The position numbers and the translations under genes were made by a program. A DNA stretch of 64,000 nt from positions 37,925 through 101,924 of IMG/VR virus record IMGVR_UViG_3300044709_000184; one strand, written 5' to 3'. How positions within the stretch are numbered: position 1 is the stretch's first letter; every line of letters begins with the position of its first letter. Origin of the DNA: a virus (taxonomy: Duplodnaviria > Caudoviricetes). Below are positions 4,721 to 39,427 of this stretch, in pieces. The notes beneath the pieces were generated by a model. The model worked only from the letters and a program-made list of their open reading frames with translations. It did no database searches and was not told the origin of the DNA.

Positions 4721-4939
4721 GTGGCGCGACTGCGGTTGCGGATCGGATTCCCCGAAACGACGCCACCCGAGCAGGCCCTCAGCGAGGCCCTCGCCGACTG
4801 GCATGAGGTCGTCACCCGGGCCGGGTCCACCCCGGTCGGTGACCCGTCGATGCGGGTGATCACCGACGATGCGGAGCGGGCCGCCCTGGGTGAGTACGTG
4901 GTTGAGGTCGTGGGGGAGCGGGCCGGTGGCGACGTCTAA
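4721..4939 (+). CDS. Hypothetical protein
   Basis: GGGAGG RBS before GTG; overlaps the amidase start. Confidence 0.5.
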   Translation: MARLRLRIGFPETTPPEQALSEALADWHEVVTRAGSTPVGDPSMRVITDDAERAALGEYVVEVVGERAGGDV

Positions 4940-5789
4940 CGACCACCCAGGGCTCCCGTTCGTCCAGGCGCAGGGCTACACCCGGGGCCGACCCGACGGG
5001 CCTCCACTGTGGATCGTGTGGCACTCGATGGAGGCCTCCGAACACTCGGCCCGGGCCGAGTCGACCGCCATGTACTTCGCCAACCCCAGCGACGGCCGGG
5101 CCGTGTCGGCCCACCACTGCGGCGACGACAACTCAGTCGTCCAGTGTGTCGACGAGGACGACTCGGCCTGGACCGTCGGTAACCGGCCCGGCAACTACCG
5201 GGGCGTGAACATCGAGCTGGCCGGGTTCGCCCGCCAGTCCCGCACCGACTGGCTCGACCCGTTCGGCCGGGCCATGTTCGCCCGCCTGGCCCCGATCGTC
5301 GCGGCGTCGATGACCCGCTGGCACATCCCGAACCGGTGGTGCACGGTGGTCGACCTGAAAGCCCACCGGCCCGGGCACACCACCCACAACGACCTGCGCG
5401 TGGCGTTCGGCGGCACCACCCACACCGACCCGGGCGCAGGCTTCCCGCGCGACCACATCCTGGACGTGATCGCCCGGGCGCTCGGCCACACCACGGAGGA
5501 CGACGACATGCCCATGTACCTGATCGAGACGGGACTGGCGAAGACCGAGGCAAACCCCAACGGTGAGCGCGTCATCTGCTCGACCGGCACCCACTACTGG
5601 TGGGTGGCCGACTTCAAACCGCTGGCCGACCGGGGCATCCCGTTCCCGGAGCAGCGGGTACCGACGGCCCAGGTACGCAACGCGTTCGGGGTGGAGGTCT
5701 TCCCCGGCTCGCCCGACCTGGCGGCCCACGTCCATGAGGTCCCGGCGGCGGTGAGCGGCCCAGCCCAGCCCGTACCGTCCACCGGCTAA
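4926..5789 (+). CDS. Endolysin, N-acetylmuramoyl-L-alanine amidase (Amidase_2)
   Basis: WIVWHS, VSAH, AWTVG, NIELAG, TTH...HTDPG zinc-amidase motifs; EDDDM linker. Confidence 0.88.
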   Translation: MATSNDHPGLPFVQAQGYTRGRPDGPPLWIVWHSMEASEHSARAESTAMYFANPSDGRAVSAHHCGDDNSVVQCVDEDDSAWTVGNRPGNYRGVNIELAGFARQSRTDWLDPFGRAMFARLAPIVAASMTRWHIPNRWCTVVDLKAHRPGHTTHNDLRVAFGGTTHTDPGAGFPRDHILDVIARALGHTTEDDDMPMYLIETGLAKTEANPNGERVICSTGTHYWWVADFKPLADRGIPFPEQRVPTAQVRNAFGVEVFPGSPDLAAHVHEVPAAVSGPAQPVPSTG

Positions 5790-5831
5790 TTTGGGCGCAA
5801 CTAGCAGCAAACTAGCCGTAGGAGGTCCGCC

Positions 5832-5978
5832 ATGCCCGCAGTCGTCCTCGCGATCGTCGCCGCGGTCAGCTTCGGCGCCGGCCTGTTCAACATCCACCTG
5901 GGCACGATCAGCTGGCTGTACCTGGGGTTGCTGCTGATGGCGGTCGCGGCCGCGTACCGGTGGTGGCTGCGGCCCTGA
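5832..5978 (+). CDS. Small two-TM membrane protein, putative holin
   Basis: 48 aa MPAVVLAIVAAVSFGAGLFNIHLGTISWLYLGLLLMAVAAAYRWWLRP; GGAGG RBS; directly after the endolysin; below the ORF-track cutoff. Confidence 0.55.
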   Translation: MPAVVLAIVAAVSFGAGLFNIHLGTISWLYLGLLLMAVAAAYRWWLRP

Positions 5979-6043
5979 CCGGCCCGGCCCTGCCTACGCG
6001 CCGGTCAAGTGAACGCGCAGACAGGGCCGAGGTAGCGGGGACT

Positions 6044-6559
6044 CTACGGTGCTACGGCCATCACACTCAGGGCCCAGTCGTCGTATCGGGCGGTCACGCC
6101 AGCGCCGACCTGGGCCACCTGCACGGTGATGGTGTGGGTCAGGGTGCTCCCCACGATCCGGGTGCGTTGCATCGAGTGTGACTCCCACGAGCTGAACGTT
6201 TCGGTTCCGCCGTCGGTGGAGTCGAACGCGAAGTCCGTCCCCACCACCGGGGCGGCCTCAGCCCCGTCGACGAGGATGCGGACGTTGCACCAGCCGGACC
6301 CGCCGTAGCAGGCGACCTCGGCCGAGAACGTGGCCAGCAGCACCGACCCGGCACCGGCGTAGATGGTCAGCGAGCCGAGGTTGGCGTATGTGCCGCCGGT
6401 CCAGACGGTTGCCGCGTCCTCGGTCAGGACCCGTACCCGGGACACTGACGTGCCGCCGCTGGTGGTGGTGGTGGCGACGGCGATGCCGGCACCGGCCAGG
6501 ATCATCGCCACCGCAACGGCGACCACTGTTGCTGTTCGTCGAGCCTTCAAAAAGCGCAT
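6044..6559 (-). CDS. Secreted beta-rich protein
   Basis: Signal peptide (MRFLKARR + hydrophobic stretch + AVA); GAGGAG RBS; downstream of the GT2 gene. Confidence 0.7.
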   Translation of the reverse strand: MRFLKARRTATVVAVAVAMILAGAGIAVATTTTSGGTSVSRVRVLTEDAATVWTGGTYANLGSLTIYAGAGSVLLATFSAEVACYGGSGWCNVRILVDGAEAAPVVGTDFAFDSTDGGTETFSSWESHSMQRTRIVGSTLTHTITVQVAQVGAGVTARYDDWALSVMAVAP

Positions 6560-6587
6560 AGCGGGTACTCCTCAAAAGGAAGCGGGA

Positions 6588-7949
6588 TCAATTGGTGTGA
6601 GGGGCGTCCGGCGAGAGCCGGAGCTGAATTTTGTGGCGGGTGCCCCAGCCGGTACGCCAGCACGTCGCCACCGCATACCAGCGGACACTGCGCAGCACGA
6701 CGGCGGCCCACAGGGCGGCGGCCGGGGCGAGCAGCCAGGTACATACCCGCCAGCGTGTGCTCCGGTCCGACCGGGCCACGGTGAGGTAGCGCAGGGTTTG
6801 GCAGTACGCCAACCCGACCGTCACCCCAGCCAGCCAGGGGACCGTACGCAGGTCGGCGCGGGCGACCGGCCACACCAGCACCACGCCGGCGAAGACAACG
6901 GCGGCGAGCAGTGCCTGGGTCCAGCGGTAGACGTGAATCCAGTACGCGGGCGATGACAGCGGCAGGTACTTCGCCCGCCACCACGACCGGATGAACGACC
7001 CCCGCATCCACCGCACGTATTGGCGCAGGTGGTGCCCGAGCGTCTCCGGCATCAGCGCGAACGCGAACGCCGTGGGCTGCTGGACGGTGCGGCCCCGTTT
7101 CATCGCGTAGAGGGTCAGCATCGAGTCGTCTGAGAACGCCACCTGCTCGTCGAAGAACGTCTCAGCGAGGTAGCCGTCCAGGTTGTCGCGCACCACCGGC
7201 GCCCGATAGACGGCGACCGGGCCGGAGTTGACCCACACCGACCCGAGCGTCGACAGGGCCGACCTGTCGACGAGCTGGGCGGTGACAAACCACAGGTCCG
7301 TGATGCGGGCCAGGGCGGTGCGGTCGTTGTTGAGGCCCAGCACGATGCCGGCCACCGACTGGACCCGTGGGTCGGCGAGGGGCTGCAGCAGCTCGGCCAG
7401 GGCGCGCCGGTCGGAGATGCTGTCCGAGTCGGTGGTCCAGTACACGTCGGCTTGCGGGGTCGCCCGGATGCCGGCGGCCTGGGCATGGCGTTTGCCCTGG
7501 TTGTCTTGCCGGGTCCAGATCAGGTCGACGCCGACCGCCTGGGCCGCGGTCTCGGCCTCGGCCCGGACGTCGCTGTAGTCGATCGGTGAGCCGTCGTCGG
7601 TGACGCAGATGGTCTGCGGCCGGCGGGTCTGGTCGAGCATGGACCGGATGCCTGCGAGCAGGGCGGCCGGGTCTTCGTTGTAGGCCGGCACCAGCGCGGC
7701 CACGTGGAGTTCGTCGAGCCCGCGACTCTGGGCGGGGGTGGCCCGCTGGGGGCGCTCCAGGAAGCACAGCACCATCTGCAGGGCGAAGGTAGCGAACCCG
7801 GCCGCGTAGATGACCGTCAACGCGCCGCCGCCGCGGCCCTGCCACACCCCCAGCAAGGCGAGGGCGTGGTGGCCGCACCACCACGCCACAGCGATAGCCG
7901 CTACCGCCCCGGCCGCTGTCGCCCACGACGGTGACCGCCAGGCGGTCAG
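6588..7949 (-). CDS. Processive membrane GT2, hyaluronan synthase/NodC/chitin synthase-like (start uncertain, ~7889-7949)
   Basis: VPAYNED, DDGS, QGKRHAQ, DSD, SGPVAVYR, SDDSMLT and QYVRW (D,D,D,QxxRW) motifs; N- and C-terminal TM helices. Confidence 0.85.
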   Translation of the reverse strand: MTAWRSPSWATAAGAVAAIAVAWWCGHHALALLGVWQGRGGGALTVIYAAGFATFALQMVLCFLERPQRATPAQSRGLDELHVAALVPAYNEDPAALLAGIRSMLDQTRRPQTICVTDDGSPIDYSDVRAEAETAAQAVGVDLIWTRQDNQGKRHAQAAGIRATPQADVYWTTDSDSISDRRALAELLQPLADPRVQSVAGIVLGLNNDRTALARITDLWFVTAQLVDRSALSTLGSVWVNSGPVAVYRAPVVRDNLDGYLAETFFDEQVAFSDDSMLTLYAMKRGRTVQQPTAFAFALMPETLGHHLRQYVRWMRGSFIRSWWRAKYLPLSSPAYWIHVYRWTQALLAAVVFAGVVLVWPVARADLRTVPWLAGVTVGLAYCQTLRYLTVARSDRSTRWRVCTWLLAPAAALWAAVVLRSVRWYAVATCWRTGWGTRHKIQLRLSPDAPHTN

Positions 7950-8131
7950 GGCTGGTTGTAGTTCCGGCCCCGCCGCCACCGCCACCGCAGCGACACCAGC
8001 ATCAGCAGGGCGCCGACCACGACGATGCCTACCCCGATCCAGGCCAACCCGGCCATGCTCAGCTTGATCCCCGCCACGGTCAGCACTCCTGCGCCAGTGA
8101 CGGGAAGCGTCCCTCCAGAACCGCCGTTCAC
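7946..8131 (-). CDS. 61-aa LPVTG sorting-signal-only membrane peptide
   Basis: MNGGSGGT-LPVTG-...hydrophobic helix-RWRWRRGR; GAGGAG RBS; stop abuts the GT2 gene. Confidence 0.65.
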   Translation of the reverse strand: MNGGSGGTLPVTGAGVLTVAGIKLSMAGLAWIGVGIVVVGALLMLVSLRWRWRRGRNYNQP

Positions 8132-8222
8132 CCACTGCCCCTCTCCTCGAGGTCGTCCCGATACGGGTGGAATTGTTCCATTCGTATGGGTGATGGGTGG
8201 TGACGCCATGCGTCGGGCGGTT

Positions 8223-8648
8223 TTAGACGATCGGCATGTACCGCCCGTCCAGCTCACGCCGATGGGTCGGGTCCGCCAGGGGCTCCTCTCCGGGCAGTGT
8301 GGGCCCGCACCCCATGGTGTGCATCAGCACGTTGAGATAACCCGGCACCGGCGTCCAGAACCCGCCCGGAATGCAGTTGTAGCCGCACAGGGCACAGGGC
8401 GCCGGCCGGAGCCGGTCCGGGGCGACCTGGCGCTGTTCGTCGACCCATCGCGGCGGCGGGTAGGTGGGCAGCGTCCTGACCATCAACACCAGAACGACCG
8501 CCGCAACGATCAGGCCGACCATGACCGCGGTGACACCGCCGACAGCGCCGATGAGCCACCCCACCCCACCCGAGCCGACCAGCAGGCCGGCCATCATGGC
8601 CAGCCGATGTTGCCAGCCCCGCTCAGACCAGATCAGCAGCCGCCGCAT
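8223..8648 (-). CDS. Membrane protein with C-terminal Cys/His motif
   Basis: Two TM helices then CALCG...HTMGC; GAGGAG RBS. Confidence 0.6.
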   Translation of the reverse strand: MRRLLIWSERGWQHRLAMMAGLLVGSGGVGWLIGAVGGVTAVMVGLIVAAVVLVLMVRTLPTYPPPRWVDEQRQVAPDRLRPAPCALCGYNCIPGGFWTPVPGYLNVLMHTMGCGPTLPGEEPLADPTHRRELDGRYMPIV

Positions 8649-8701
8649 GCGGTCTCCTCGTTGCTCAGGTAGTTGATCGCGCGCAGAGGGGGGTTTGGAC
8701 G

Positions 8702-9061
8702 ATGGTACGCAAGACGTTGGCCGTGTTGGCCGTGGTGGGCGGTCTGGTCCTGGTGGTCGCGTTTGCCGGGTTCACGTTGGTGGCAGGCGTCGGCACCGGC
8801 ACCCGGTCATTTGCCGGTGGGCCACCTACTACGCCGCACAGCCCGCAGCTGCTCACGCCCACACCGGCGCCGTCGCCCACCCCCGAGGTCACCCCGACCC
8901 CAGCGCCGACAACACCGGTGGTGGTCACGTCAACGTCGGCTATGCGGACCTTGCCCGTGACGGGACCCGGCCAGGCCTGGCCGCTGTTCTGGGCCGCCCT
9001 GGCCCTCGTGGCCGTCGGCTCCGCCATGCTGGTCGTCACCCGCCGCCGCCCAGAGTCATGA
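8702..9061 (+). CDS. Sortase-anchored (LPXTG) Pro/Thr-rich surface protein
   Basis: Signal peptide, PT-rich stalk, LPVTG + TM helix + RRR tail. Confidence 0.75.
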   Translation: MVRKTLAVLAVVGGLVLVVAFAGFTLVAGVGTGTRSFAGGPPTTPHSPQLLTPTPAPSPTPEVTPTPAPTTPVVVTSTSAMRTLPVTGPGQAWPLFWAALALVAVGSAMLVVTRRRPES

Positions 9062-9802
9062 CACCTCCGGGTCGACCGCCAGCCACACGTCGGGGAAGGC
9101 CGGCTGAGGCCCCATCCGCACCGAGGTGACCACACCGGCCGGGAACACGCACAGCAGCTGGCCGTCGGCGCCGGGTTCGAACGACATGGGCCACCCGGCC
9201 AGCATGTGGCTCGGGTCGTGAGGCCCGTCGTGATGGCGGGGCGTTATCGCCATCTCCGGTTTGAGCCCGGCGAGGCGGGCCCCGACCATGACCAGCCCCG
9301 CCGCCATGAGAGATCCGTCGGCCAGCCAGACCCGCTGCACCACCCCGATCAGCTCCTCCTTGGTGGGGCTGCGCCGTCCGGGTTCGACCGTGAACAGCGG
9401 CGCCCCACCGCGCTCCGGCACCTGCCAGTCGCCAGCCAGTAACATCCGCCCGTCATCGGACGGCCTGTCGACCGGGCCGAGGAGTGCTGTGAAGGGCACC
9501 AGCTGCCGGGCCGCAAGGTTGCGGCGCATCAGCATGAACCGGGTCGCCACGGTGGCGACCAGCCCCAGCAACGCCAGAGCATTGAGCCAGCCCACCACGA
9601 TCAGCACATTCCACACGGTGGGCTGCCGCATCGCCGGGATCGCGAACAGGGCCGTGCCGGCGACCGCCCAGGTGACCCCCAGCCCGTACACGACCGGGAT
9701 GGCCCAGCTGGTCGGGTAGCGGCGGGCGACCCACCGGCCGGCCTCAAACAGGGCGACGATGCCCAGGAAGGCGCCGGCCAGGGCAAACCGGTCGAAGATC
9801 AT
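9056..9802 (-). CDS. Three-TM protein fused to a degenerate prohead-protease-like domain
   Basis: The C-terminal half aligns by eye to the N-terminal domain of 33605..36109 (GPVDRPSDDGR vs APIDQPTGDGR; PQPAFPDV vs PIPAFVEA). Confidence 0.6.
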   Translation of the reverse strand: MIFDRFALAGAFLGIVALFEAGRWVARRYPTSWAIPVVYGLGVTWAVAGTALFAIPAMRQPTVWNVLIVVGWLNALALLGLVATVATRFMLMRRNLAARQLVPFTALLGPVDRPSDDGRMLLAGDWQVPERGGAPLFTVEPGRRSPTKEELIGVVQRVWLADGSLMAAGLVMVGARLAGLKPEMAITPRHHDGPHDPSHMLAGWPMSFEPGADGQLLCVFPAGVVTSVRMGPQPAFPDVWLAVDPEVS

Positions 9803-9981
9803 GGCAGGGCCTTTCTCGGAACGGTGGGCAGGTCGGCCCGCGCTACTTCACCGGCGCGGCTCTGTCCGGCCTGGGCGGCGTCGATGAGGGCCAGGAACTC
9901 GGCGTACCGGCGGCCCAGCTCGTCGCCGTCGCCGCTCACGTACTGGGCGTCGACGGTGGGCTCCTCGCCGGCGGCGCTCAC
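9799..9981 (-). CDS. Hypothetical protein
   Basis: Overlap-coupled small ORF in an operon. Confidence 0.45.
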   Translation of the reverse strand: MSAAGEEPTVDAQYVSGDGDELGRRYAEFLALIDAAQAGQSRAGEVARADLPTVPRKALP

Positions 9982-10196
9982 GACGGCCGCCATGCCTGGG
10001 CCAGGCGGGGCACCGTACGGACGATCCGTTCGGCCATCTCATGCAACCCTTCGGTGAGCACGTCGACCGGCTCGGGGCCGCTGCCGCCACCGAAGATGAC
10101 CACCGCGGCGGCGACCAGGGCGTCTTCCAGCTCGGCGATGTAGGCCGCGTCAGACGGGCAGCGGGCCGGGCCGCTGATGGTCCACCCGGCGGCCAT
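9978..10196 (-). CDS. Hypothetical protein
   Basis: Coupled ORF starting MAAGWTISGP. Confidence 0.5.
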   Translation of the reverse strand: MAAGWTISGPARCPSDAAYIAELEDALVAAAVVIFGGGSGPEPVDVLTEGLHEMAERIVRTVPRLAQAWRPS

Positions 10197-10387
10197 CACA
10201 GCCACCTGCACAGCAGGCTGCCCACGAACAGCCCCACCAGCAGGGCCAGGGCCGCGTAGCTGTGCGGGTTGGCCCGCGGCCACCAGTAGCTGCGCCGGGG
10301 CTGGCACACCGTCCGGTGGTCGGGTGCGGTCTGTTCGGTCAGGGCGGTGCCGCACAAAATGCAGCTGATCAGTGTTCGGCCGGTCAT
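10196..10387 (-). CDS. Small protein with CxxC motif and C-terminal TM
   Basis: CILC...H...C then a hydrophobic tail; ATGA coupling to the integrase stop. Confidence 0.5.
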   Translation of the reverse strand: MTGRTLISCILCGTALTEQTAPDHRTVCQPRRSYWWPRANPHSYAALALLVGLFVGSLLCRWL

Positions 10388-11379
10388 GAGGCTTCTCCTT
10401 CGGCTTCGATGCGGGCGGTGTGCCACCGCTTCTCCAGCTGCCATGAGGGGCTGCGTTCGGGCGAGTTGGGTGACCGGTCGTACATGTCGGTCGTGACGAT
10501 CGAGGCGTGCCCGGCGGCGCGGCGCACATCACCCATGGGCATACCGCCGTCGAGGGCCGTCGTGATGTGGGTGGCCCGGGTCGAGTGGGGGGTGAGCTGG
10601 TCGATGAGCCGCTCCGGCAGACCCGCCTCGGCGGCTAGGCGGCGCAGCAGCAGCCGCACCGCGGTCCGGTGGATGCGCCGGCCGGTCCTGGTGGCGACCA
10701 GCGGCCGGTCCCCGGCGGCGACCTGACCTGGCAGGGCCGGCAGCCGGTCCAGGTCGGTTCGGTCGGCCAGGTAGGCCTCAATCCGGGCCAGGGTGCCGGG
10801 GGCGATGGTGACCAGCCGGGTCCGGCCGCCCTTGCCCCGCACGTACAGCACCGTCATGCCCCGGTCCAGGCCAATGTCGCCGACGTTCGCGGCGACCAGC
10901 TCCCCGACCCGGATGCCGGTGGTCAACAGCAGCCACACGATCGCCGCGGCCCGGGGTGTGTCGGCCAGGGCCGCGGCGAGGAGCTTCTCCACCTGCCCGT
11001 CCGACAGGGCCGGGGCCCGCCTCGGTGCCGGTTTGGGCCGCTCGGCCCGGTCGAGCAGGGCCGGGTTGCGGTCGGTGGCCTCCTCCCGGATGAGCCACCC
11101 GTACCACGACGACACCGCCGCCAGCCGCCGCGCCCGGGTCGACCCGGACTCGTGGGTCAGCGATCCCAGCCACAACGACACGTGCCGGTGCCGGGCATCG
11201 GTCGGGTAGACCCCGTTGGTCCGGCACCACTTCAACCACGACGCGAGGTCACGCCGGTAGGCGTCCTTGGTGTGCTCGGAGAGCCGGGCGACCAGCCAGT
11301 CGTTGGTCAGCTCGTTAAGCCGTTCGTTGCTGGTCGGATCACCGGCCGGGACGAGGTCGTTACCTGCCACGGCGGCCAT
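10384..11379 (-). CDS. Tyrosine recombinase/integrase (XerC/D-like)
   Basis: SAM-like N-domain (SEHTKDAYRRDL), TGIRVGEL, RGKGG, TPHSTRAT, GHASIVTTDMY: complete R-K-H-R-H-Y set. Confidence 0.92.
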   Translation of the reverse strand: MAAVAGNDLVPAGDPTSNERLNELTNDWLVARLSEHTKDAYRRDLASWLKWCRTNGVYPTDARHRHVSLWLGSLTHESGSTRARRLAAVSSWYGWLIREEATDRNPALLDRAERPKPAPRRAPALSDGQVEKLLAAALADTPRAAAIVWLLLTTGIRVGELVAANVGDIGLDRGMTVLYVRGKGGRTRLVTIAPGTLARIEAYLADRTDLDRLPALPGQVAAGDRPLVATRTGRRIHRTAVRLLLRRLAAEAGLPERLIDQLTPHSTRATHITTALDGGMPMGDVRRAAGHASIVTTDMYDRSPNSPERSPSWQLEKRWHTARIEAEGEAS

Positions 11380-11803
11380 CCCGCTTGCCCACGTTGCCGA
11401 GCAGGTCATCCACGATTCTGGCTGCGCGGCGCAGCCCACCCGGGTAGGTCACGTGTTGGCGGGCCGGAGCGGCTCTCTCCCCCCTGCTGGCTTCGGCCAT
11501 GATCGCCTTGTGTGCGCCCGCCAGAGCGACCCGCATTGACTGGTCGACCAGTTCGTCCCGGGCGTCCAGCACAGCCGCTGCGCTCTCACCAGCATCGGCG
11601 GCGAGACAGTTGCGGTGCCACAACTGCTCAACCAGATGGGTGTATGGGGCGACGGCGCAGTCGCACGTGTCGAACACGTACGCCAGGTCGATGATGCCGA
11701 CCCGCAACAGGTCGGCACCGCAGCGCGGGCAGGCGCTGAGCCGCTGGTCTGGGTGGTCACGACGCGAGTGCAACTCCAACGTTTGCCCGGTCGGCTCAGC
11801 CAT
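11360..11803 (-). CDS. Hypothetical Zn-ribbon protein
   Basis: CPRC and HRNC motifs; coupled in operon. Confidence 0.55.
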   Translation of the reverse strand: MAEPTGQTLELHSRRDHPDQRLSACPRCGADLLRVGIIDLAYVFDTCDCAVAPYTHLVEQLWHRNCLAADAGESAAAVLDARDELVDQSMRVALAGAHKAIMAEASRGERAAPARQHVTYPGGLRRAARIVDDLLGNVGKRDGRRGR

Positions 11804-37427: not shown

Positions 37428-39427
37428 GCCGCGACCAGGTCGGGGGCGTTGAGGCGCCGGCCGGTGCAGGCCGCGTCGACCAGGTCACGCAGCAGGGCCG
37501 GGTCGTAGCCCAGGCCGCGGGTCAGCAGCTCCAGGCAGAACCCGTGGAGCAGGGCCTCCACCTGGCCCGGGTCGAGGCCCAGGTCTTCGGCGGCGGGGGC
37601 CAGGTCGATCCAGGCGCCGCGCAGGACCCGTTCGGCGTCGCCGGGGCTGACCGGGCCGCGGCGGGTGTGGAGCTGGTAGCGGGGCGTGTCGGGCCACTGG
37701 TCGCGTTGGTGGTGGGTGATCAGCCGCACCCCGGCCAGGCCTAGGGCCCGCCGCACAGCTAAACCGGCCACCGGCAGCAGCAGGCTCGCCGTCGTCGGGG
37801 CCGGCTGGGGGGCGGGTTGGGTCGGGGTCGGGGCCGGTTGGGGGGCCTCGGTCGGCTGGGCTGGGATGGCCCGCGGCTGACCCGGTTGAGGTTCGCCCGG
37901 CTGGGCGGGCTGCTGGGTGGGGCCGCCCACCCCGGGCGGGGCGGTCGGGGCCGTCACCGACGGCGCCGGCGCTGGCAGCCCGATCAACGTCCGGATGGTC
38001 GGGTCGGTGAGCAGGGTCGGGTCGGCGATGAGGGCCTTCTCGGCGAGGCGGCGTAGCCGCTCCCGCTGGGTGGGCATCTGCTCCGGCACGAACGCGCCCG
38101 CGACCACGGCCGCCTCGTCGGAGAGCAGCAGCTCCTCGTGGTAGGCCAGGGCGTCGGTCGAGCGGTTGGGCCGGGCCGACAGGGGCGCGGTGTCGAAGTC
38201 GTACGAGTACAGGTCCGGGTCGAGGCCCATCGACTCGAGCGCCGGGCGGAGGTAGCCGGTGGTGAGGGCGTCCGCGATCCGCGACAAGATCGGTTTGATC
38301 TGCGTGGTGATCGCATCGTCGCTCACCTGCCAGGCAGTCCAATGATTACTGTCTGCCTGGCCTAGGAGGATTTCGGGCGGAATGTCGAGGCCCTGGGCGA
38401 GGGACCGGACGGCGGCCTCCCGCAACGGCAGCAACTGCTCGCTGAGGTCGGACCAGAACGTGATCAGCTTGATCTTGTCGACGGCGTCGGGGGGGACGGT
38501 CATCAGGATCGGCACCAGCGCCTCAGCCGAGGCCCGGTCCCGCAGCGAGGTGGCCATGGCCCGCATGAGGACCCGCTGGAAGCCGTCGACGCCGGGGGGG
38601 TCGTCGGGGCCGCGGGGGAAGTCGATGCCCTGGGGCAGGGCGAGCAGCCCGGCGCCGGCGAGGCGGCTGTCCAGCTCGGCGAACTCGCGCTTGCGGAGGG
38701 CCTCGATCTCACGCAGGTCGGGGATGGCGGAGCGGGTCGGGGAGTCCGGCTCGTCCGGGTCTGCCGGGTGGGGGGTCCACACCTGCAGCAGCAGGTCGAT
38801 GCCGGGGCGGAACACCATGTCGCCGCCGCCGTGGAGCAGGGACCGGCGGATGATGATGCGGTCGCCGGACAGGCGGATCTGGCGGCCCGACACGACGTAC
38901 CACAGGTCGTCGCCGTCGGGGGCGGCGTCGGCTTCGGCGACCACGTAGCCGTCGCCTGGGACGTACAGGTTGATGGCGAGCAGGCGCAGCGCCTCGTCCT
39001 TGGCGGGGCCCTTCCCGAGCGGGCCCTGGGCCAGGACGGCAATGTCGGGGTCTTCGGTTTCGCCGGTGACCTCGCCCGACTCGTCCAGCTCGGCCACGTA
39101 CAGCCGGCACCGGCTGACCGAGTTGCCGATCCAGTTGCACACGAACCGCAGCTGGGGGGTGATGTCGTACAGCCGCCACGCCTCGGCCTGCCAGGTGCGT
39201 GACCCGGGCCGCCAGGTCCGCCACCCAACGCCGTCCATTTCGACGGAGGCGACCGACGCGGTGACCGACTGGGCGGGCAGGGTGATCGCGGTCAGGGCGT
39301 GGCTTGCGCACCGGTCGGTGCCGTGGCTGGTCCAGTGTCGGCACCGTGAGCCGGTGGAGGAGGCGACGGCGGTGCAGCGCTGGTCGAGGTCGGGGAGGCG
39401 CCGCGCGGGCAGCGTCGCCACCGTCAC
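37424..39427 (-). CDS. Portal protein
   Basis: WQAEAWRLYD.TPQLRF, SRLAGAGLL, LAQGLDIPPEILLG, NHWTAWQ; follows terL. Confidence 0.85.
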   Translation of the reverse strand: MTVATLPARRLPDLDQRCTAVASSTGSRCRHWTSHGTDRCASHALTAITLPAQSVTASVASVEMDGVGWRTWRPGSRTWQAEAWRLYDITPQLRFVCNWIGNSVSRCRLYVAELDESGEVTGETEDPDIAVLAQGPLGKGPAKDEALRLLAINLYVPGDGYVVAEADAAPDGDDLWYVVSGRQIRLSGDRIIIRRSLLHGGGDMVFRPGIDLLLQVWTPHPADPDEPDSPTRSAIPDLREIEALRKREFAELDSRLAGAGLLALPQGIDFPRGPDDPPGVDGFQRVLMRAMATSLRDRASAEALVPILMTVPPDAVDKIKLITFWSDLSEQLLPLREAAVRSLAQGLDIPPEILLGQADSNHWTAWQVSDDAITTQIKPILSRIADALTTGYLRPALESMGLDPDLYSYDFDTAPLSARPNRSTDALAYHEELLLSDEAAVVAGAFVPEQMPTQRERLRRLAEKALIADPTLLTDPTIRTLIGLPAPAPSVTAPTAPPGVGGPTQQPAQPGEPQPGQPRAIPAQPTEAPQPAPTPTQPAPQPAPTTASLLLPVAGLAVRRALGLAGVRLITHHQRDQWPDTPRYQLHTRRGPVSPGDAERVLRGAWIDLAPAAEDLGLDPGQVEALLHGFCLELLTRGLGYDPALLRDLVDAACTGRRLNAPDLVAA

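Follow-up and report, generated by a model that had tools for sequence, protein, structure and literature searches.

A tailed phage encodes a membrane protein of only 61 amino acids (aa) whose short open reading frame (ORF) carries an LPVTG sortase motif and lies directly upstream of a gene for a processive family 2 glycosyltransferase (GT2) with the hyaluronan synthase (HAS) fold. The pair is located in a stretch of 64,000 nucleotides (nt), hereafter the window, which corresponds to positions 37,925 to 101,924 of the IMG/VR virus record IMGVR_UViG_3300044709_000184 (Duplodnaviria; Caudoviricetes). Judged from sequence comparison, the micro-ORF is a genuine gene, a conserved partner of the GT2 gene, and translationally coupled to it. 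In the reading that we prefer, which we hold to be a little better than even, the two genes form a module of a HAS-fold synthase and a single-pass subunit whose outer end bears a motif for the host sortase, and cleavage by that sortase ties the synthase to sites where wall precursors are handled.

The micro-ORF and its coupling to the synthase gene

The micro-ORF (7946..8131, minus strand) runs from a GTG at 8131 to a TGA at 7946. Its product consists of a short N-terminal tail, (M)NGGSGGT, the LPVTG motif, a Gly-rich linker, one transmembrane (TM) helix, and a basic tail, RWRWRRGRNYNQP; 35 mostly hydrophobic residues follow the motif and lead into RWRWRRGR. The region has a G+C content of about 70%, and the values at the three codon positions of the micro-ORF, 0.66, 0.55, and 0.855, are the coding pattern of this genome. 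By the same measure, neither the same-frame 5' extension to 8257 (third-position G+C, GC3, of 0.52) nor the GT2 frame across 7950-8135 (GC3 0.55) is coding-like. A Shine-Dalgarno-like sequence read from the minus strand, GAGGAGAGGGG (8138..8148), is placed 6-11 nt ahead of the GTG. No Pfam, NCBIfam, or PHROG family reached its threshold with the micro-protein. Gene callers already predict homologous micro-ORFs in many genomes, and the products carry the database label 'hypothetical protein'.

Many spurious ORFs arise in GC-rich DNA, and the GT2 frame here is open as far as 8135; the micro-ORF might then be a chance open frame or the 5' portion of a GT2 gene with a frameshift. This explanation is hardly credible, as the codon-position G+C over 7950-8135 supports the frame of the micro-ORF over that of the GT2, the ORF is kept in at least 103 loci at a mean identity of 33%, the overlap coincides with the start site of homologous GT2s, and fused micro-protein-GT2 forms are absent among the 120 homologues listed. 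Both the chance ORF and the frameshifted GT2 were rejected, since codon bias, conservation, and the homologous starts contradict them. The ORF with LPVTG, TM helix, and basic tail that a preliminary description had picked out from the letters alone is thus real, as its coding GC3, its Shine-Dalgarno site, and its homologues attest.

The conservation survey covered 125 loci with a GT2 homologue, of which 80 come from species genomes and 43 from IMG/VR; the other two are from the Streptomyces phage Kromp and from a Logan contig. In at least 103 of them, an ORF of 49-82 aa with L[PA]xTG, a TM helix, and a basic tail is found directly upstream on the same strand, and the survey of gene neighborhoods that the preliminary description had proposed therefore finds the micro-ORF conserved. 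The pair occurs in actinomycete chromosomes, prophages, phage Kromp, IMG/VR contigs, and Saccharibacteria, and the micro-ORF is the sole neighbor of the GT2 gene that is conserved across loci. One locus (L050), from a metagenome-assembled genome labelled Kofleriaceae (Myxococcota), holds an LAHTG micro-ORF and a GT2 that fall within the Streptomyces clade and are nearly identical to an IMG/VR contig (L111); mis-binning of an actinomycete or prophage contig is probable here.

The N-terminal tail before the motif is 2-14 residues long, with exactly 6 residues in 63 of the 94 distinct sequences and 4-6 in 82. For example, gp78 of Kromp reads MSDHAR-LASTG-...-RFGFRRGKNAGQQ. When 75 micro-proteins were aligned (mean identity 33%), the initial Met, the motif residues T and G, and one Arg of the tail were invariant; the motif L was kept in more than 90%, and x varied (R, Q, A, V, S, K, H, and others). 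The tail consensus [FW]RR[GN][KR]xxG[EQ] and a juxtamembrane xGxxxIGG are conserved far beyond what a generic sorting signal needs. About 10 further loci have a degenerate motif, such as LPTAG, LASAG, LAKSG, IASTG, or LPFAG.

In 88 of the 103 loci, a 4-nt overlap (GTGA, ATGA, or TTGA) joins the stop of the micro-ORF to the start of the GT2 gene, and in most of the remainder the two codons are within 2 nt of each other. On sequence evidence, therefore, the pair is a strictly coupled two-gene module. In the window, as in the two relatives nearest to it, the overlap position (7946-7949, minus strand) reads CTGA, and a GT2 translated from the CTG at 7949 would begin (M)TAWR..., which resembles the MTA... 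N-termini of homologues. The GT2 of this lineage thus appears to start either at this CTG, by re-initiation, or at a GTG (7979/7985 or 7889), the last of which yields a 433-aa form (P0001). The overlap of stop and start described earlier holds as the homologous arrangement; in this lineage, translation would begin at a CTG, which is non-canonical, or at a GTG nearby.

The GT2 gene (6588..7949, minus strand; homologous start CTG 7949, alternatives GTG 7985/7979 and 7889) encodes a protein that matches PF13641 (E 3e-16) and PF00535 (E 4e-13). Its motifs VTDDGS, TDSDS, FSDDS, and QYVRW correspond to the D, DxD, SDD, and QxxRW signatures; DDG, DSD, SDD, and QYVRW occupy invariant columns of the alignment, with D174/S175/D176, D274/D275, and R313/W314 constant across 40 homologues, in agreement with the processive GT2 of the D,D,D,QxxRW type first proposed. 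A profile of these 40 homologues searched against the PDB had the Chlorella virus HAS (CvHAS) as its first match (E 6e-25). The AlphaFold2 (AF2) model (pLDDT 88.6) has helices at 7-36, 43-64, 304-328, 334-364, 369-390, and 408-428, arranged as two N-terminal TM helices, the glycosyltransferase domain, an interface helix, and three more membrane helices. A Foldseek search with this model placed Xenopus HAS1 (XlHAS1; query TM-score, TMq, 0.70) and CvHAS (0.62) first, with E of about 1e-19, and BcsA and chitin synthases lower.

The class I hyaluronan synthases CvHAS and Xenopus HAS1 (PDB 7sp6-7spa, 8smm-8smp) and their relatives NodC, chitin synthase, and BcsA share with the GT2 the GT-A domain, the D/DxD/(S)DD/QxxRW motifs, and TM helices on both sides of the catalytic domain, and provide its best sequence and fold matches. 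However, identity to the solved HAS enzymes is only 16-20%, and CvHAS, at about 570 aa, is longer than the 453-aa GT2, the sequence match ending near CvHAS residue 459. To our knowledge, no LPXTG micro-protein partner accompanies the known HAS enzymes. None of the NCBIfam equivalogs was reached by the GT2, the best being NodC with 121 bits against a cut-off of 550; therefore, 'HAS-like' is a label for the fold of this protein and not for its product.

The motif and the sorting signals of the hosts

Besides its conservation, the motif varies with the host. Its second residue is P in all 14 Micromonosporaceae loci (LPxTG) and A in all 47 Streptomyces loci (LAxTG). The hosts' own sorting signals were checked with the profile TIGR01167 in two genomes, one of Micromonospora (G002, which holds locus L007) and one of Streptomyces (G001, which holds L020). 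All nine motif-bearing matches in the former were LPxTG; those in the latter comprised seven LA[ED]TG and one LPQTG. Class E sortases recognize LAXTG (PMC5148588), a published specificity with which these results agree. On a FastTree phylogeny of the GT2 proteins, the exchange between P and A occurred several times, tracking host taxonomy.

On the same tree, the lineage of the window is sister to an all-LP Micromonosporaceae clade with a support of 100. Given this placement and the uniform LAxTG of the Streptomyces loci, the phage probably infects a Micromonosporaceae-like, LPxTG-using actinomycete and not Streptomyces.

The arrangement of LPVTG, hydrophobic segment, and basic tail that is typical of sortase substrates is present in the micro-protein of the window, and the same layout recurs in at least 103 loci. 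The net charge of the N-terminal tail is 0 or -1 in 83 of the 94 distinct sequences and the C-terminal tail is basic, both of which fit a topology with the N-terminus outside and the C-terminus inside. Sortase genes, detected by Pfam or profile, lie within 3 kb of the pair in four loci, two from Pseudonocardiaceae and two from Saccharibacteria (L015:4302-5012, L019:1748-2497, L021:4275-4898, and L031:4284-4907). The one in L015 is on the same strand, 27 nt past the GT2 match, and in both Saccharibacteria loci with full flanks and an LPATG micro-ORF, a convergent sortase gene is situated just past the GT2 gene.

Class E and housekeeping sortase substrates, such as the chaplins ChpA-C of Streptomyces coelicolor (PMC5148588), resemble the micro-protein in the L[PA]xTG motif, the hydrophobic stretch, the basic tail, and the host-matched P or A. 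Conversely, the micro-protein is devoid of a signal peptide or passenger, its cargo would amount to only 2-14 residues, its linker is longer, its tail sequence is conserved, and x is never acidic.

Several observations weigh against sortase action on the micro-protein. Sortase genes are nearby in only 4 of the 125 loci, and none is encoded in the window or in the whole 101,924-bp virus record to which it belongs. A Sec signal peptide and a passenger domain are absent, only eight residues preceding LPVTG in the window. The general LPXTG-anchor profile TIGR01167 scored the micro-protein at 10.2 bits against a cut-off of 15.9, and PF00746 was not reported for it. Counted from TG, the first basic residue is 30-33 residues away in most members, compared with 24-26 in three hand-measured host substrates. 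In the 103 micro-ORFs, x is never D or E (R in 39, Q in 21, A in 16, V in 8, and others), in contrast to the substrates of the Streptomyces genome G001, which are mostly LAETG or LADTG. This avoidance could mean that another sortase paralogue acts on the motif, or that no sortase does. Finally, relatives with a degenerate motif or none exist.

Taken as a whole, the pattern supports, indirectly and from sequence, the view that L[PA]xTG behaves as a genuine signal for sortase, in that L, T, and G are retained and x varies, with P or A following the signals of the host. The sortase part of the preliminary interpretation is accordingly upheld in part, through a conserved and host-matched motif, and weakened by the missing signal peptide and the unreached profile.

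Candidate roles of the micro-protein

Insight into the core role of the micro-protein comes from the GT2 relatives at the greatest distance (37-47% identity), which form a separate, well-supported clade on the GT2 tree. Here, the small upstream ORF encodes a TM helix and a similar tail and has no motif. The products are 39 aa long, with the TM helix and WRRGK, and end in ...ARLIWRRGKGLEEP or ...IRVCWRRGKRLEDL; in one locus (L166), the 4-nt overlap with the GT2 start is still present. Because this distant clade keeps the TM helix and tail without the motif, the core role of the micro-protein is most likely that of a small synthase subunit, to which the sortase motif would be an added module. 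None of the three virus records of the clade encodes a sortase.

A glycoside hydrolase family 26 (GH26) gene follows the GT2 gene in the motif-less clade, with a GH113 gene close by in L166 (L166:3885-6336, L167:3915-6627). GH26 and GH113 are beta-mannanase families. Since these genes adjoin the pair, the polymer of this clade may be of a beta-mannan type rather than hyaluronan.

Small synthase subunits have precedents in IcaA-IcaD of Staphylococcus and PgaC-PgaD of E. coli, the poly-N-acetylglucosamine synthases, in which a processive GT2 is accompanied by an adjacent small membrane protein needed for full activity and the operon coupling is comparably tight. The co-encoding expected of such a subunit is present here, in the prevalent 4-nt overlap and in the standing of the micro-ORF as the only conserved neighbor. 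IcaD and PgaD are, however, larger, have two TM helices, and are encoded after the synthase gene. Searches of Pfam, NCBIfam, and PHROG detected no sequence relation between them and the micro-protein, and we know of no sortase motif in either.

By analogy with IcaD or PgaD, the micro-protein may be an accessory subunit and nothing else, stabilizing or activating the synthase, with a motif that is structural (e.g., a contact at the channel exit) and no sortase action. We consider this unlikely, while giving it real weight. The motif-less clade retains the TM + WRRGK core and the overlap, the juxtamembrane xGxxxIGG and the tail are conserved more strongly than in ordinary sorting signals, and the sub-threshold scores of the sorting-signal hidden Markov models, the absent signal peptide, the atypical spacing, and the never-acidic x all suit such a role. 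Yet a purely structural motif sits poorly with a P or A that tracks the sorting-signal type of the host through several switches on the tree, with an invariant T-G next to a free x, and with the sortase genes that adjoin the pair in four loci, including the same-strand gene of L015.

The preferred reading, in which a synthase subunit is also a substrate of the host sortase, would proceed as follows. The GT2 would be a membrane-embedded processive glycan synthase, and the micro-protein its single-pass subunit, oriented N-out/C-in and produced in step with it through the 4-nt stop/start overlap. The core of the subunit, which would bind the synthase, would be the TM helix and the cytosolic [FW]RR[GN][KR]xxG[EQ] tail, as kept by the motif-less relatives. 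In the clade of the phage, the extracytoplasmic end would have acquired or retained a motif for the housekeeping sortase, LPxTG of the Micromonosporaceae type or LAxTG in Streptomyces. The host sortase would then cut between T and G, for which MNGGSGGTLPVTGAG and MSDNAQLARTGTA are candidate site peptides. An N-terminal peptide of about 12 residues would be handed to lipid II or the wall, and the Gly-started fragment of TM helix and tail, about the size of a motif-less subunit, would stay on the synthase. The function of the synthase would thereby be tied to the sites of sortase and wall-precursor activity. The position of the module between the lysis genes and the integrase gene is the place of a lysogenic-conversion gene, and the module may alter the host surface.

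A more far-reaching role had been put forward in the preliminary description, namely that the micro-protein is a primer or tether. Here, the glycan would be begun on or joined to the N-terminal peptide, which sortase would fix to peptidoglycan, giving a wall-anchored polysaccharide; a sugar-bearing MNGGSGGTLPVT-muropeptide would be the expected wall product. All the evidence for a functional sortase signal would equally serve this idea, and 92 of the 94 distinct micro-proteins have a Ser, Thr, or Tyr in the N-terminal tail, with Ser at position 2 in 73. Ser is, however, common at position 2 of bacterial proteins, and the tail is short and poorly conserved apart from this residue. The active site of the GT2 is cytosolic, and the motif is necessarily outside the membrane. 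By their titles, the nearest solved HAS entries include GlcNAc-primed states and no protein acceptor. The motif-less relatives evidently function without the motif.

A precedent for joining a glycan to a sortase-anchored polypeptide exists in the actinobacterium Actinomyces oris, in which GspA, LcpA, and SrtA cooperate (PMC6381275). In that system, however, an LCP phosphotransferase adds the glycan to a full-size secreted protein and no synthase-coupled micro-protein takes part, whereas no ligase or LCP gene is conserved among the loci studied here. On balance, we judge the primer or tether role to be rather unlikely. Of the roles that had been offered for the micro-peptide, that of accessory subunit is backed by the comparative evidence, and nothing indicates priming or covalent tethering. 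A broader proposal is that sortase fixes the synthase-made glycan to peptidoglycan, either because the glycan is joined to the extracellular peptide or because the acyl-intermediate is resolved onto the glycan, and that the whole then acts as a phage-portable module for surface conversion or superinfection exclusion. This we regard as distinctly unlikely.

Finally, the micro-protein could be a sortase decoy, in which case the phage would flood the host sortase with a minimal substrate and so cut surface display (e.g., of receptors), the linkage to GT2 being incidental co-regulation. The micro-protein is indeed minimal and substrate-like, and the phage encodes another LPVTG protein. We nevertheless find a decoy very unlikely, since the coupling to GT2 is strict, the pair also occurs in chromosomal contexts outside phages, and the conserved tail and linker would be superfluous for this purpose.

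Genomic surroundings, related proteins, and implications

The contexts of the pair elsewhere differ widely. In Micromonospora chokoriensis, it is chromosomal and adjoins a two-component system; in Streptomyces solisilvae, it is inside a prophage; and in Carbonactinospora thermoautotrophica (L165, 400-15417), it has a type I restriction-modification system on one side and an OLD/AAA_15-type protein on the other, a setting like a defense island. These contexts would fit a mobile surface-modifying module, possibly an anti-phage one. With chromosomal copies in Micromonospora and a defense-island copy in Carbonactinospora, the pair is not phage-specific.

In the window, the gene order on the minus strand is a 141-aa membrane protein, the 61-aa micro-ORF, GT2, and a 171-aa secreted protein. 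An Amidase_2 endolysin gene (4869-5789, plus strand; Pfam) comes just ahead of this block and a tyrosine integrase gene (11439..10384, minus strand; Pfam) just past it, so that the module is flanked by lysis genes and integrase and shares the strand of the latter. Genes for a tape-measure protein and a portal-like protein lie deeper in the window. No near-identical phage record was found in the search, and neither the GT2 and the micro-protein nor their neighbors had a family in PHROGs. No promoter-like site was detected in 5700-10500; two terminator-like matches, both on the plus strand, fall inside the GT2 gene.

The remaining neighbors recur only in two near relatives (L083 and L002) among the 125 loci. 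This holds for an ORF at 9056-9802, for the 171-aa and 141-aa proteins, and for a Pro/Thr (PT)-rich protein, the last being conserved in L083 only. The preliminary description had noted the secreted and PT-rich proteins beside the pair; both are present as described, and they are restricted to this phage lineage, outside the conserved module.

The 171-aa protein (6044..6559, minus strand), located beyond GT2, has an N-terminal hydrophobic helix and a TNF-like, lectin-like jelly roll. Its AF2 model (pLDDT 93.4) is a confident beta-sandwich, and Foldseek matched it to the C-domain of Pgp3 from Chlamydia and to two bacterial TNF-like lectins, PLTL and BC2L-C-N (TMq 0.50-0.56). It belongs to a large secreted family with 742 relative clusters and no Pfam family. 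As a lead from the model, it may bind glycan.

The 141-aa membrane protein (8223..8648, minus strand; GC3 0.87) has no family match in Pfam, NCBIfam, or PHROGs. Its C-terminal part is rich in Cys and His (PCALCGYNCIPGG...HTMGC).

The PT-rich protein of 119 aa (8702..9061, plus strand) has an N-terminal signal or TM segment and ends in LPVTG, a TM helix, and RRRPES. It exceeds the cut-off of the sorting-signal domain NF058582 (28.7 bits against 27) and scores 19.3 bits with PF00746 (cut-off 20); from these sequence features, it is an ordinary small sortase substrate. Once signal peptide and sorting signal are removed, about 50 residues rich in Pro and Thr would remain fixed to the wall; in actinomycetes, such sequences are typically targets of O-glycosylation.

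Curators have already recognized small proteins with hardly anything besides an LAXTG signal, as in the NCBIfam family NF058583, 'LAXTG motif-containing small protein' (LAXTG_small_WW). This profile matched the 75 micro-proteins weakly (best E 7e-4), did not match the micro-protein of the window at E up to 1, and scored Kromp gp78 at 11.2 bits against a cut-off of 65. In 401 actinomycete genomes, no match exceeded the cut-off, and most matches were C-terminal signals of large proteins. The best sub-threshold matches were open frames of 68 and 74 aa (L151 and L152) with LAxTG, a TM helix, and a basic tail that do not adjoin a GT2 gene. SafA, a small TM protein that protects actinobacterial sortase (PMC9282373), was also considered and is a different protein. 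Our literature searches brought up no account of a glycan synthase paired with a sortase-motif micro-protein, in line with the novelty claimed for the pairing at the outset.

Synthase-dependent exopolysaccharide production and sortase-mediated display are both well studied and have been treated as separate pathways. As a HAS-fold synthase is strictly coupled to a micro-protein with a host-matched sortase motif, the occurrence of the pair in more than 100 actinomycete, Saccharibacteria, and phage loci implies that the two pathways meet. For phage biology, the two-gene module is a compact candidate for converting the surface of actinomycete lysogens, and receptor masking or lysogenic conversion, as first suggested, would fit the position of the module between the lysis genes and the integrase gene. 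If sortase does process the subunit, this would represent a new way to regulate, localize, or anchor bacterial polysaccharide, as well as a new class of sortase substrate that is essentially free of cargo.

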